Positions 25,555-29,379 of a stretch of DNA of 64,000 bases are shown in pieces. Origin of the DNA: Terriglobia bacterium (GTDB taxonomy: Bacteria > Acidobacteriota > Terriglobia > Versatilivoradales > Versatilivoraceae); NCBI GenBank assembly GCA_965215235.1, contig OZ244053.1, positions 2,471,192 through 2,535,191 on the forward strand. The letters run 5' to 3'. The notes below the pieces were generated by a model that did no database searches, had not been told where the DNA came from, and saw nothing but the letters and a program-made list of their open reading frames with translations. How positions within the stretch are numbered: position 1 is the first letter of the stretch; the number at the start of each line of letters is the position of its first letter. A program made the translations under genes and the position numbers.

Positions 25555-27600
25555 ATGGCGCAACGACCATCGAAAAAGATACGCGCCGGCACGGGCGCGC
25601 AGCCGGGCGACAACGGCGCCACGACTGGCTACGAGTCTGAACTTTGGCGGATGGCCGACGCGCTGCGGGGCAGCATGGACGCCGCCGAGTACAAGCACGT
25701 CGTCCTCGGTCTCATCTTCCTCAAGTACATCTCCGACGCCTTCGAAGAGGCCTACGCTCAACTGAAGGCTGAGGTCGATCAGGGGGCCGACCCCGAGGAC
25801 CCGGACGAGTACCGCGCCCGGAGCATCTTCTGGGTTCCCCCGGAGGCCCGCTGGCCGCACCTGAAGATACAGGCGCGCCAGTCCACCATCGGCCAGTTGG
25901 TGGACGACGCCATGGCCGCCATCGAGCGTGACAACCCGGTTCTCAAGGACGTGCTGCCCAAGGACTACGCCCGGCCCGCCCTGGACAAGGCCCGCCTGGG
26001 CCAGCTCATCGACCTCATCGGCAACATCCGGGTCGGGGATGAGGATGCCCGCTCCAAGGACGTGCTGGGCCGAGTCTACGAGTACTTCCTCTCCCGGTTC
26101 GCCAGCGCCGAGGGCAAGAAAGGCGGCGAGTTCTACACGCCCCGCAGTGTGGTCAGGCTGCTGGTGGAGATGCTGGAGCCCTACAGCGGGCGGGTCTACG
26201 ATCCCTGTTGCGGCTCATCGGGCATGTTCGTCCAGTCGGTGGAGTTCATCCGCGCCCATGCCAGCGGCAATGGCAACGGGGGCAGGGCTCGGGCCGACAT
26301 CTCCATCTACGGCCAGGAATCCAACTACACCACTTGGCGGCTGGCCAAGATGAACCTGGCCATCCGGGGCATCGAAGGCCAGATCACCCACGGCGACAGT
26401 TTCCTCAACGACCGCCACCCCGACCTCAAGGCCGACTACATCCTGGCCAATCCACCCTGCAACGTCTCCGACTGGGGCGGCGAGCGCCTGCAAGAGGACA
26501 AGCGCTGGCGGTACGGCGCGCCGCCGAGGGGCAACGCCAACTTCGCCTGGGTGCAACATATGGCGCACCACCTCTCGCCCAGCGGCGCGGCGGGCTTCGT
26601 GCTGGCCAACGGCTCCATGTCGTCCAACCAGTCGGGCGAGGGCCAGATACGCCGGAACCTCATCGAGGCCGACCTGGTGGACTGCATGGTGGCGCTGCCC
26701 GGCCAGCTTTTCTATTCCACCCAGACCCCGGCCTGCTTGTGGTTTATTGCCTGCGACAGGCGCAGGCAACCCTCACCCGGCGCTCCGCGCCGCCCTCTCC
26801 CAAAGGGCGAGGGTCATTACCGGGGCGGATTTGATTTTTCCGGGCAACTGAAACTGGCGCGGGAAATGAGAAGAAAGGCGACTCCAGCGGAAGCTCTAGC
26901 TTGGGAGTTGTTCAGGGGTCGGCGATTCCTTGGACTCAAGTTCCGTCGCCAACATCAGATCGGCAGTTACGTCGTGGACTTTTATTGCCACGAGAAGCGG
27001 TTGATTGTGGAACTTGATGGCCCCGTCCACGACGGTCCGAAAAGGCGACCCATAGATGCAAAACGTGACGCCTACCTCAAGTCCATGGGACTGAAGATCC
27101 TGCGACTCAAGAACGAGCGCCTGCTCGACGATACCAACGAAGCCCTCAACGAAATCGCAAACGTCCTAACCCCCTCTCCCAGTGGGAGAGGGGCAGGGGT
27201 GAGGGCGAACAGATTTCGTGACCGAAGACACGAAATCCTGTTCATCGACGCCCGCAAGCTGGGCCGCAGGGTCGACCACACCCACCGCGAACTGACCGAC
27301 GACGACATCGCCCGCATCGCCGACGCCTACCACGCCTGGCGCGGTGAGGAGGATGCCGGCGACTACGCCGACACACCCGGCTTCTGCAAGAGCGCAACGC
27401 TGGAGGATGTCCGCAGGCACGGCCACGTCCTCACCCCCGGACGCTACGTCGGGGCTGAGCCGCAAGAGAACGACGGCGAACCCTTCGAGGAGAAGATGCA
27501 ACGGCTCACCGCCCAGTGGCGGGAGCAGCAGGCCGAGGCTGTCCGGCTGGACGCCGCTATCGAGGCCAACCTGGAACGGCTGGGATTTGGAGGCGACTGA
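25555..27600 (+). CDS. hsdM: Type I restriction-modification methyltransferase subunit HsdM carrying an in-frame about 150 aa DUF559 (Vsr-like endonuclease) insertion
   Basis: N-terminal '[22 protein letters not shown]'. Motif I/IV region '[14 protein letters not shown]'. C-terminus '[36 protein letters not shown]...[10 protein letters not shown]'. The block between '...[13 protein letters not shown]' and '[15 protein letters not shown]' is not part of canonical HsdM. Confidence 0.85.
26767..27210 (+). mobile_element. In-frame DUF559-domain insertion within hsdM, flanked by inverted 'CCCTCACCC'/'GGGTGAGGG' repeats and GC hairpins
   Basis: '[59 protein letters not shown]...[21 protein letters not shown]' is the DUF559 signature. 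Left flank 'AACCCTCACCCGG...GCCCTCTCCCAAAGGGCGAGGG'; right flank 'CCCCTCTCCCAGTGGGAGAGGGGCAGGGGTGAGGGCG'. Length is a multiple of 3. Confidence 0.6.
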
Positions 27601-27676
27601 AGAACAAGACGACAGCTTGAAACTTCAACTGGCTAGACTTATAATCTAGCCAAATTCATCCTGGGTGGAGGCGAGT

Positions 27677-27931
27677 ATGACCGATTGGCCGTTGCAAGAT
27701 GCCAAGAACCGTTTCAGCGCCGTTGTGGATGCCGCTCTCGCCGGGAGCCCGCAGCGGGTGACTCGACGGGGCAAACCCGCCGTGGTCATTCTGGCGGTGG
27801 ATGAGTACGAGCGTCTGCGCAATGCAAAGAGGGCGAACGCGCCGACACTTGCGGATTTGCTCCTCTCCATCCCCCAAGACGACAAAGAGTTCGAACGGCT
27901 TCGACTTCCGACCAGACGGGCCGATTTCTGA
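27677..27931 (+). CDS. vapB: Phd/YefM-family antitoxin
   Basis: 'MTDWPLQDAKNRFSAVVDAALAGSPQRVTRRGKPAVVILAVDEYERL' with GGAGG 7 nt upstream. Stop overlaps the vapC start. Confidence 0.75.
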   Translation: MTDWPLQDAKNRFSAVVDAALAGSPQRVTRRGKPAVVILAVDEYERLRNAKRANAPTLADLLLSIPQDDKEFERLRLPTRRADF

Positions 27932-28344
27932 TGTTTCTGATCGATACCGACGTACTATCGGCGCTCCGGAGGCGGAAGCGCAACCCCGATGTCGTCCGAT
28001 GGATGGAAGCTCAACGTACGTCGGACCTGTACATCAGCGTGGTGACCGTTGGCGAGATAGAGCGTGGAGTCGCACGGCAGCAGAGCCGCGACCGGACGTT
28101 CGCGCTGACGCTGGCCGCTTGGCTGGACGGTGTGCTGTCGCTGTACGGTGACCGCGTTCTCGGCGTTGACGTCTCCACGGCGCGCCGCTGGGGCCAACTG
28201 TCCGGCTCGCTTGGACACGAAAGCGCAGACTTGCTGATCGCCGCCACGGCGCTCGAACACGGTTTGACCCTGGTGACCCGGAATGTCGGGCGCTTCGAGC
28301 CGACGGGCGTCCCTGTGCTCAACCCGTTCACTGTTGAAGTATGA
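27931..28344 (+). CDS. vapC: VapC PIN-domain toxin
   Basis: 'MFLIDTDVLSALRR...' PIN domain with conserved D residues, 137 aa. Confidence 0.8.
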   Translation: MFLIDTDVLSALRRRKRNPDVVRWMEAQRTSDLYISVVTVGEIERGVARQQSRDRTFALTLAAWLDGVLSLYGDRVLGVDVSTARRWGQLSGSLGHESADLLIAATALEHGLTLVTRNVGRFEPTGVPVLNPFTVEV

Positions 28345-28382
28345 TTCACGATGCCTCAAATCGGCCGTTGGGAGGACGCACG

Positions 28383-28694
28383 ATGATCCCGGCAGTTGCC
28401 GAGCACGCCGCTGAACTGGAGTCGATCTGCCAACGCTACAGCGTGGCGCGGCTTGACCTGTTCGGCTCGGCGGCCACCGGCAAGTATCGACCGGAGGACA
28501 GCGACCTGGACTTTCTGGTGGAGTTCCAGGAGTTGCCCGCCGGAGGCCACGCAAGCGTCTATTTTGGCTTGCTGAAGTCCCTGGAGCGGCTCTTCTTTGG
28601 GCGGCCCGTGGACCTGGTGGTGGAATCGGCCATCAAGAACCCCTATTTCCGGGAATCGGTTGAAGAAACCAGGGTGATGATTTATGCGGCGTGA
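28383..28694 (+). CDS. MNT-type nucleotidyltransferase antitoxin (HepT/MNT module)
   Basis: 'LDLFGSAATGKYRPEDSDLDFLVEF' minimal nucleotidyltransferase motif (GS...D.D). GGGAGG upstream of ATG 28383. Confidence 0.7.
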   Translation: MIPAVAEHAAELESICQRYSVARLDLFGSAATGKYRPEDSDLDFLVEFQELPAGGHASVYFGLLKSLERLFFGRPVDLVVESAIKNPYFRESVEETRVMIYAA

Positions 28695-28965
28695 AGCCGG
28701 AAAATACCTATGGGACATACAGCGCGCCATCGGTTTGATCCAGGACTTTACCGATGGCAAGACCTTTGCCGACTACCAGTCCGACGTCATGATGCGCTCT
28801 GCTGTAGAACGGCAGTTTGAAATCATCGGTGAGGCCATGACCCAACTGGCAAAACTTGCCCCGGCCCTCGCCTCCCGGATAAGCGAATGTGAGCGGATTA
28901 TCGCTTTCCGCAACGTCCTGATTCACGTCTACGCTGATGTGGATGACATACGGTATGGGATGTAG
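28684..28965 (+). CDS. HepT (DUF86) toxin
   Basis: 'RNVLIHVY' R(x4)HxY motif. Overlaps the MNT gene by 11 nt. Confidence 0.7.
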   Translation: MRREAGKYLWDIQRAIGLIQDFTDGKTFADYQSDVMMRSAVERQFEIIGEAMTQLAKLAPALASRISECERIIAFRNVLIHVYADVDDIRYGM

Positions 28966-29020
28966 TGGAGAACAATCCGCCAACCCTCAGCCGCGAGATT
29001 GACGCCCTTCTGGAGGAAGA

Positions 29021-29266
29021 ATGACCGTCCAAGAACTTACCCGGTTGCTGGCAACCTATCCACCCGGCTTGCGCGTGGTCGTGAGCGGCTATGAAGAGGG
29101 CTACGACGACCTGTCGCCAGAACAGATATCGGTGGTGAAGATTTGCCTGAACACCGGGACCGAGTCCTGGGTGGGACAGCACGAAGAGCCAAACCTTCTG
29201 ACGGGAGGACTGCCCGACGACGCTGAGATCGTCGAGGCACTAAGTTTACGGCGAGTCTCTAATTGA
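29021..29266 (+). CDS. Hypothetical small protein (81 aa)
   Basis: ORF with GGAGGAAGAATG start context. No family recognised. Confidence 0.35.
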   Translation: MTVQELTRLLATYPPGLRVVVSGYEEGYDDLSPEQISVVKICLNTGTESWVGQHEEPNLLTGGLPDDAEIVEALSLRRVSN

Positions 29267-29270
29267 TGAA

Positions 29271-29379
29271 GATGACCCTCCTCACTGCCCAGTGGCGGGA
29301 GCAGCAGACAGAAGCCGTGAGGCTCAGTGCCGCCATTGCGGTCAATCTTAAGAGCCTTACCTTTGGAAAGCTCTGTTGA
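29271..29379 (+). pseudogene. Duplicated, diverged hsdM 3'-end remnant ('[37 protein letters not shown]')
   Basis: Aligns with the real hsdM C-terminus at 27496-27600 ('[34 protein letters not shown]'). The 20-nt 'CCCAGTGGCGGGAGCAGCAG' is identical. Confidence 0.65.

Follow-up and report, generated by a model that had tools for sequence, protein, structure and literature searches.

Two diverged hsdM 3′ ends bracketing a toxin–antitoxin block in a Terriglobia type I restriction–modification operon: a likely scar of recombination between related operons

Here we describe a type I restriction–modification (R-M) operon of a Terriglobia bacterium (assembly GCA_965215235.1, contig OZ244053.1) in which the 3′ end of the modification gene hsdM occurs twice, once as the end of the intact gene and again, as a diverged remnant, beyond a block of toxin–antitoxin (TA) genes lying between hsdM and hsdS. 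The window analysed is the whole stretch of 64,000 nucleotides (nt) from position 2,471,192 to position 2,535,191 of the forward strand; positions below are window coordinates, and all features of the locus are on the + strand. The second copy derives from coding sequence, has a sharp left edge and retains its native spacing to the gene that follows it, orf335, and similar remnants recur in other operons with a fixed polarity and variable breakpoints. On balance, and with modest confidence, we favour the view that two operons of a conserved hsdM-hsdS-hsdR family recombined non-reciprocally and left this copy behind as a non-functional scar. The original prediction for this DNA, namely that the TA block was swapped in by recombination between two hsdM alleles, is right in spirit (two alleles, recombination) and wrong in detail. 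The elements that carry the argument are the following.

25555-27600, + strand: hsdM, intact, 681 amino acids (aa); Pfam HsdM_N, N6_Mtase and DUF559; PADLOC MTase_I, E = 1.9e-213
27492-27600, + strand: copy 1, the functional hsdM 3′ end, beginning 4 nt ahead of the ...FEEKM Met codon and running to the stop
27511-27531, + strand: exact core, 21 nt in common with 29287-29307
29264-29274, + strand: proposed illegitimate joint; a single T separates the orf81 stop TGA from GAAGATG of the hsdM remnant
29268-29379, + strand: copy 2 (the remnant), 112 nt, probably the 3′ end of another hsdM allele; 37 codons plus stop, 1 nt after the orf81 stop; probably without a functional protein product
29389-30396, + strand: orf335, an uncharacterised embedded gene starting 9 nt past the remnant

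The two copies form an ungapped, in-frame direct repeat of 100 nt (27492-27591 against 29268-29367; 70/100 identical, spacing 1776 nt), which was detected by a repeat finder and recovered in the same register by MAFFT. As originally predicted, copy 1 is the true end of the intact hsdM, closing at 27600, a second and diverged copy follows, and the repeat brackets vapBC, MNT/HepT and orf81. Two details had to be corrected: the open reading frame (ORF) of the second copy has its ATG at 29266 rather than 29271, and the exact core (GCCCAGTGGCGGGAGCAGCAG) measures 21 nt rather than 20, with similarity extending well past it. The local alignment of the remnant with hsdM scores 40, against 10.8±1.3 (maximum 17) for 300 shuffles and a best score of 14 on the opposite strand. 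The reading frame is kept in both copies, each up to its own stop codon; their products share 24/33 aa (tblastn, E ~4e-10), and a family hidden Markov model (HMM) of HsdM C-termini matches the remnant at profile positions 26-58 of 60 (E = 4.5e-11). The same model matches the intact gene, which has hsdS and hsdR linked to it on the same strand, at positions 1-58 (E = 5e-35). The left edge of the repeat is sharp, at 27492/29268: at the fixed offset there are 1-5 matches per 10 nt up to 27491 and 6-10 per 10 nt from 27492 onwards, and blastn matches that reach the left end of the remnant begin at 29268-29269. On the other side similarity fades past ~27600.

The 36 mismatches between the copies fall 19 times at third, 9 times at first and 8 times at second codon positions (chi-square ~6.2, p ~0.05), which suggests that much of the divergence arose while both copies were coding and thus fits two alleles rather than duplication in situ followed by decay. 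The latter is unlikely in the light of this bias and of the linkage between the remnant and orf335 described below. An assembly artefact was ruled out: the copies are only 70% alike, there is no long shared k-mer at the joint, and the architecture is found in ~10 independent assemblies.

The right-hand end of the remnant belongs with the gene that follows it. In the closest orf335 homologs with context, in loci L001 and L002 (61% aa identity), the order is hsdM (516 aa), an 11-nt gap, orf335 and hsdS, and the 3′ end of this hsdM aligns to both window copies. The spacing of 9 nt between remnant and orf335 thus compares with 11 nt after an intact hsdM. A further homolog, in L003, sits in quite a different neighbourhood with hsdM absent nearby, and directly upstream of it is a ~33-nt vestige (ENLKSLCVGR and stop) of which 15 nt, AATCTTAAGAGCCTT, are identical to window 29344-29358. 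The gene order of L001 and L002 together with the vestige of L003 indicates that the remnant's end is the original upstream neighbour of orf335; by this comparison the last ~35 nt of the remnant appear to travel with that gene.

Remnants of this kind are a recurrent feature of the family. With the HsdM protein as query, one genome per species was scanned, which gave 80 related loci (72-87% protein identity) from Acidobacteriota, Binatia, Dehalococcoidia, Planctomycetota, Gammaproteobacteria and other phyla and classes. Room for additional genes is common in them, the gap between hsdM and hsdS exceeding 300 nt in 47/68 loci and that between hsdS and hsdR in 43/47. Remnants of the hsdM 3′ end were found in ~11/80 loci and remnants of the hsdR 5′ start in ~8/50. 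The former, identified by tblastn and the family HMM, lie downstream of the intact gene in L006, L009, L011, L018, L020, L021, L047, L077 and L078, and L027 has a complete second hsdM in tandem; the latter lie upstream of the intact hsdR in L012, L013, L022 (two), L035, L053, L070 and L071. Within the operons the polarity is constant: hsdM pieces keep the stop-proximal end and are cut on the left, hsdR pieces keep codon 1 and are cut on the right, and all are on the operon strand. The genes enclosed by the hsdM repeats differ from locus to locus, namely HicA (L009), HigB with an HTH/M78-like (helix-turn-helix) gene (L021), Fic (L011, L020, L047), SLFN/AlbA_2 (L006, L078), the unknown orf146 (L018) and MNT/HepT (L077).

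Most remnants are short (18-40 codons in 10/12 cases), and their identity to the resident hsdM end ranges from 95% in L018 and 93% in L021 (219 nt) down to 70% in L020 and in the window. A nonsense codon (CAG to TAG) has arisen in the L018 remnant, Leu replaces Met in L009, the ATG is lost in L077 and several others are without a start codon, so that the remnants look like decaying sequences, not conserved genes. Outside the operons proper, the hsdR 3′ end is duplicated downstream of hsdR in L033 (19906-20105), and hsdM is preceded at ~220 nt by a 69-codon hsdR start in L018 (9571-9777) and at 1.9 kb by an hsdM 3′ end in L060 (8081-8149); these stumps suggest that whole-operon replacements leave scars too.

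Counted from the first base of the conserved FEEKM Met codon (27496 in the window), the remnants start at -6 in L009, -4 in the window, -1 in L018, +3 in L077, +23 in both L011 and L006, +24 in L020, +28 in L060, +36 in L047, +40 in L078 and -139 in L021. Such variable breakpoints (-139 to +40), combined with differing cassettes, imply several independent events and no single site-specific core. Four of them, in the window, L009, L018 and L077, nevertheless fall within 10 nt of one another, although their cassettes differ and each remnant is closest to its own resident gene; the chance of such clustering is roughly p = 0.01-0.03. The cluster coincides with the 3′ edge of the last well conserved hsdM block, where mean pairwise identity drops from 0.80 to 0.62 (70 intact hsdM ends, 30 nt on either side of the edge). 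Either pairing stops there, we infer, or remnants that included the conserved block have been lost by recombination with the intact copy.

The joints themselves are sharp and leave room for microhomology of only a few nt. That of the window is similar to other orf81 ends on its left, up to ...AATTGATGAA, and opens with GAAGATG on the side of hsdM. Taking as proxies for the parents the orf81 end of L015 (aattga, then TGAAAGAG beyond the joint) and the hsdM sequence 109 nt before the stop in L063 and L056 (gagga before the joint, GAAGATG after it), the overlap is ~3 nt (GAA), and at most 3-4.

Colinearity with the window extends over 27238-28328 in L070, where vapBC follows an intact hsdM end, and over 27364-27821 in L021, where an 84-codon hsdM remnant precedes a vapB whose product is 90% identical in aa to that of the window. 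The best matches to copy 1 over 100 nt are L077 (82), the L021 remnant (81) and L070 (81), all of them hsdM ends that precede MNT/HepT or vapBC. Over the hsdM body L077 and L070 rank 17th-46th of 82, and over the last 100 nt 1st-4th, with differences of a few nt, a weak hint that the window hsdM may be mosaic. The remnant, for its part, has diverged more from the family than have intact ends (median 61 vs 69 of 100 nt), and its 5′ half is 88% identical to L056 over 50 nt. A search of related genomes for alleles ending in the second variant had been suggested; the best match of the remnant is L063 with 74/100 nt, little better than copy 1 with 70/100, and a specific donor allele could not be assigned.

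The course of events that we infer would begin with two operons, one of the order hsdM′-orf335-hsdS-orf429-hsdR′ and the other of the order hsdM-vapBC-MNT/HepT-orf81-..., pairing through the conserved hsdM body, their homologous anchor. Where hsdM homology decays, 109 nt before the stop, the TA segment would have been joined illegitimately at its far end, on ~3 nt of microhomology, and the product would carry an intact hsdM, the TA block and then the 112-nt tail of the other, displaced hsdM, which remained linked to its former neighbour orf335. No duplicate can come from a reciprocal homologous exchange, so that one joint (orf81 stop to hsdM at 109 nt before its stop) must be non-homologous; here the idea of a swap fails, whereas recombination between two alleles is broadly upheld by the third-position bias and the comparative remnants. 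Nor need the TA block be the incoming piece, as had been supposed: the data fit equally well an older hsdM′-orf335-hsdS unit whose hsdM was displaced by a TA-bearing one.

Duplications of the hsdR start, which had been put forward as a mirror image, are indeed present, at 32999-c.33050 and 33609-33634 against the true start at 35527. On the displacement scenario orf183 would have been added first and a DUF1828/1829-DUF4143 cassette later, leaving two hsdR-start remnants, so that cassettes would accrete outward from an old core while the outer hsdM and hsdR are renewed in each round. A stability filter may act on the outcome, in that longer or more similar remnants would be deleted, together with their cassette, by recombination with the intact copy, and short diverged ones would persist. 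Displacement would explain the polarity and nesting of the remnants, the 9-nt spacing to orf335, the variability of the breakpoints and their position where hsdM homology ends.

Several observations weigh against this interpretation. Neither a donor nor an empty site nor a close relative of the locus was found in the collections searched, where the nearest orf335 is 62% and the nearest hsdM 87% identical, and the microhomology is therefore read from proxies. The remnant shows at most 74/100 nt identity to any sampled allele, compared with 70/100 to copy 1, and the case for two alleles rests mainly on the codon-position bias (p ~0.05) and the linkage to orf335. The G+C content at third codon positions, 0.81 in copy 1, 0.84-0.89 in the hsdM body and 0.70 in the remnant, does not separate the copies, the gap between them being non-significant with 36-37 codons each. 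The window joint lies exactly at the orf81 stop, and those of L077 and L021 also abut the end of the upstream gene, which is tidier than random illegitimate joining predicts. Finally, the Fic-linked remnants (L011, L020, L047) resemble one another through their stop codons and the DNA beyond is unrelated; remnants that travel with the upstream cassette are not predicted by simple displacement.

This last point leads to another route, which we consider unlikely, whereby a portable unit of hsdM end, cassette and remnant enters related operons by double homologous recombination and regenerates the bracket. Its left arm would be the hsdM body and its right arm a functional, possibly hybrid, remnant that pairs with the 3′ end of the recipient hsdM; a related possibility is a circle excised between the copies and re-integrated in Campbell style. 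Beyond the Fic-linked remnants, whose mutual similarity far exceeds that of the resident hsdM ends, such movement would account for L006, whose remnant has an equal breakpoint (+23) and the same sequence type as the Fic-linked ones behind a different upstream gene, AlbA_2. It would suit the window remnant, with its conserved 5′ half and a 3′ end that goes with orf335 as in a hybrid arm, and the high identity of the copies in L018 and L021. Given minimal homology lengths, short and diverged arms would be poor for RecA-type recombination, and those available here are only 50-110 nt long, at 70% identity and with no more than 21 nt exact in the window. Fic aside, cassettes of the same type occur without common remnants (the window remnant does not have the MNT/HepT-linked remnant of L077 among its best matches), and an illegitimate founding event would still be needed. 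The pattern does suggest that a bracketed cassette, once formed, can spread by ordinary double homologous recombination with the remnant as inner arm. Reduction of tandem operons of the same family, by internal deletions leaving one hsdM, hsdS and hsdR plus stumps, is quite improbable. It is true that L027 carries its two complete hsdM genes with an hsdS fragment between them, that L006 contains an hsdM fragment, an intact hsdM, the remnant and an hsdM of a second family, and that the window has truncated genes, e.g. the DUF4143 fragment; yet about four operons and three deletions would be required, each ending a few nt from the end of a cassette gene and sparing one intact copy per hsd gene. 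Nor does this scenario lead one to expect deletion ends clustered where a conserved hsdM block ends, or remnants that are nearly all short.

That the remnant is kept for a function, be it a translation relay from orf81 to orf335 and hsdS, the ribosome-binding site of orf335 or a free peptide of the HsdM C-terminal helix, seems to us highly improbable. Its ATG (29266) overlaps the orf81 stop (TGATG), and its own stop lies within the Shine-Dalgarno motif of orf335, GAGGA, which straddles it 9 nt before the ATG; the start points of four remnants lie no more than 10 nt from the conserved Met codon, and the last ~33 nt are retained in L003. Such a function sits poorly with the in-frame stop of L018, the Leu for Met of L009, the missing ATG of L077 and the starts 23-40 nt further in elsewhere, and with the remnant's greater divergence from the family, and a ribosome-binding site would need only the last ~15 nt. 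Least credible of all is insertion by a site-specific recombinase or a transposon, in which the repeats would be an att or target-site duplication or an integron-like attC, and we rejected it. Direct repeats do surround the inserted genes, and orf183, 3.7 kb off, is Y1-transposase-like, but neither an integrase nor a transposase is encoded in or beside the bracketed block. No integrase or resolvase domain was found in 25.5-35.5 kb (Pfam, PADLOC, NCBIfam), and scans of the region gave no Rfam family or tRNA. The repeats run over 100 nt at 70% identity and are not short exact duplications, the breakpoints vary among loci with no constant core site, and there are no terminal inverted repeats, including at 27492/29267.

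Beyond the displacement proposed for this locus, a broader and more tentative idea, which we hold to be possible though doubtful, is that the hsdM tail and the first hsdR codons serve as recombinase-free attachment points, the outer hsd sequence supplying homology and its decay setting the insertion point. In the same idea the stumps would act as inner homology arms that move units of cassette plus stump across phyla, in an integron-like manner that uses general recombination.

The remaining features of the locus are as follows.

27617-27645, + strand: sigma-70-like promoter, TTGAAA-17-TATAAT, in the hsdM-vapB spacer; 11/12 consensus positions, the sole such site in 5.2 kb
27665-27931, + strand: vapB, Phd/YefM-type antitoxin; Pfam PhdYeFM_antitox 1.2e-15; NCBIfam phd_fam
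27931-28344, + strand: vapC, PIN-domain toxin; Pfam PIN 1.2e-15; NCBIfam VapC models below cut-offs
28383-28694, + strand: MNT nucleotidyltransferase, antitoxin of MNT/HepT; Pfam NTP_transf_2; PADLOC PDC-S09 1.2e-32
28684-29024, + strand: HepT toxin gene; Pfam HepT-like; 1-nt frameshift at ~28949
29021-29266, + strand: orf81, small conserved protein; ATG overlaps the HepT stop
30408-31709, + strand: hsdS, specificity subunit; Pfam Methylase_S; PADLOC Specificity_I 1.8e-128
31713-33002, + strand: orf429, embedded gene; weak ApeA_NTD1 match; stop overlaps the ATG of hsdR-start remnant 1
32999-33050, + strand: hsdR 5′-start remnant 1, ~50 nt, MTTITKADAKQAAPGP and stop
33061-33612, + strand: orf183, like the tyrosine transposase associated with repetitive extragenic palindromes (REP); NCBIfam NF047646 9.2e-18, below cut-off; stop overlaps the ATG of remnant 2
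33609-33634, + strand: hsdR 5′-start remnant 2, 24/26 nt identical to 35527-35552
34044-34808, + strand: DUF1828/DUF1829 gene; PADLOC candidate PDC-M24B
34805-35502, + strand: DUF4143 ATPase fragment, 5′-truncated and frameshifted; two ORFs, covering Pfam DUF4143 positions 19-110 and 106-160
35527-38655, + strand: hsdR, intact, 1042 aa; Pfam HSDR_N, SWI2_SNF2 and T1RH-like_C

Within the TA block vapB, vapC and the MNT gene are intact and the HepT gene is frameshifted. The promoter-like site upstream overlaps a perfect 9+9 palindrome, CTGGCTAGA(N7)TCTAGCCA, just 5′ of vapB (27617-27660), which is probably the VapB operator, so that promoter and operator together would constitute autoregulated TA control; transcription of the remnant, orf335 and hsdS could also start from this site, with no need of the hsdM promoter. 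The frameshift in the HepT gene stems from the loss of one G (CGG-GTA) at ~28949, with the C-terminal 24 residues, TVWDVVENNPPTLSREIDALLEEE and stop, in the other frame and their TGA overlapping the orf81 ATG; it is either a real inactivation of the toxin or a homopolymer error of the long-read assembly. MNT and HepT of L077 are 67-68% identical to those of the window (MNT 68% aa). The product of orf81 has no match in Pfam, NCBIfam or PADLOC; it has homologs in 12/80 related loci, mostly placed directly behind hsdM or directly ahead of hsdS, and may serve this type I family as an accessory component or a regulator.

Near hsdR, the ATG of each start remnant overlaps the stop of the preceding gene (orf429, orf183) as ATGA, and the remnants differ in their similarity to the true start, the hsdR-proximal one matching at 24/26 nt and the inner one at ~77%. 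The DUF4143 fragment, which marks another presumed illegitimate joint, lies directly after the PDC-M24B gene and is without its N-terminal AAA part; the partner gene of this candidate system thus appears to be degraded in the window. The G+C content is 65-69% in hsdM and hsdR and 45-55% in 29.3-33 kb.

A family of 256 homologs was collected for orf335, which has no match in Pfam, NCBIfam or PADLOC. Its AlphaFold (AF2) model is confident (predicted local distance difference test, pLDDT, 85.5; predicted template modelling score, pTM, 0.81), and a fold search of the PDB gave no match (best E = 0.059, template modelling score, TM, below 0.2). An N-terminal beta-beta-alpha element with invariant C29, P30, C41, H44, N47, Q60, R61, D63 and D65 resembles, in this model, a putative His-Me finger nuclease. 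The homologs adjoin hsdM/hsdS, MmeI, SIR2, HipA and AAA_15/DUF4276 genes, and we regard orf335 as a candidate defence gene. A metagenome scan with orf335 alone returned no matches; with the orf335 alignment it returned 80 loci, in 74/76 usable ones of which hsdM of this family is missing upstream, and added no remnant cases. The gene is mostly a stand-alone one.

The hsdM gene itself carries an insertion. By alignment to the uninterrupted hsdM of L012, a DUF559 (Vsr-like endonuclease) module is set in frame into a loop at aa ~414-545 (window 26790-27195); the inverted repeat CCCTCTCCCAAAGGGCGAGGG / CCCTCTCCCAGTGGGAGAGGG borders it, coding for PLPKGEG... on one side, and the module coincides with a local dip in G+C. 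The same module is present within hsdM of L005, L006 and L020 and, again in frame, between the hsdS halves of six loci (L014, L015, L016, L019, L030 and L073), and a lone SPLPVGEGKGVRV footprint breaks up the L006 hsdM remnant. The module has the look of a mobile element that inserts in frame and either tolerates hsd genes or targets them.

Genes nested in type I R-M operons are well known, as exemplified by PrrC, embedded in the EcoprrI operon. More recent cases include DarTG2, in the hsdMS-darTG-hsdR island of enteropathogenic Escherichia coli (EPEC; PMC12255303), and the candidates of the PDC type, defined in a “guilt-by-embedding” survey (bioRxiv 10.1101/2024.01.29.577857). The present locus is alike in having vapBC, MNT/HepT (PDC-S09), PDC-M24B and uncharacterised genes nested among hsdM, hsdS and hsdR. 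The subject of these papers is the content and function of the embedded genes, whereas here stumps of hsdM and hsdR mark the boundaries of the cassettes; the survey leaves the meaning of embedding for exploration and cites the genomic-sink idea, and a word search of its text gave no mention of recombination, remnants or truncation. Searches of open-access literature text returned no description of hsdM or hsdR stumps inside operons.

The closest parallels in mechanism come from toxin loci. For type VI secretion system (T6SS) effector-immunity modules in Vibrio cholerae, sequential displacement through illegitimate recombination facilitated by homology was proposed (Kirchberger et al. 2017, PMC5361080), as was displacement of Rhs C-termini (Jackson et al. 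2009, as cited in PMC5361080). There, as here, a conserved upstream gene is the anchor, incoming DNA brings a new end and the genes downstream of it, the old end is pushed downstream as a stub beside its old partner gene, and arrays grow by repetition. The anchor in our case is a housekeeping-like subunit of a restriction enzyme and the displaced piece a conserved C-terminal helix, in contrast to the variable toxin tip of T6SS and Rhs proteins, and it is unrelated TA and defence cassettes, rather than immunity genes, that accumulate, from both operon ends. Integron arrays and att duplications at tRNA genes are similar in that repeats of a target end bracket acquired genes and newcomers are placed beside the conserved gene, but the present locus has no integrase, attC-like structure, fixed core site or tRNA, and its repeats are long and diverged. 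Phase-variable hsdS shufflons or invertons likewise generate partial hsd copies within a type I locus through recombination; these are inverted hsdS half-genes with a dedicated invertase that switches specificity, unlike the direct repeats of hsdM and hsdR ends seen here, which come with no invertase and no evidence of switching. The mechanism is thus of a known kind (displacement scars) in a new setting, both ends of a type I operon.

The nesting of defence and TA genes in type I R-M operons, BREX and the like is well documented and serves to discover new defence systems, while their route of entry is treated as unsettled. The hsdM 3′ and hsdR 5′ stumps, present in ~1/7 of the related loci and in many phyla, are physical footprints of insertion; they indicate that cassettes come with a replacement end of the flanking gene and from both sides, that older cassettes lie deeper in the operon, and that breakpoints favour the region of fading hsdM homology. 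From a practical standpoint, searches for such stumps offer a marker of cassette boundaries and of the order of acquisitions in defence islands, and the polar, recurrent pattern provides a concrete and testable route for the build-up of defence cassettes in type I R-M operons. Should the hsd ends also prove to be recombinase-free attachment points, this would amount to an integron-like route into type I R-M systems for defence and TA genes.

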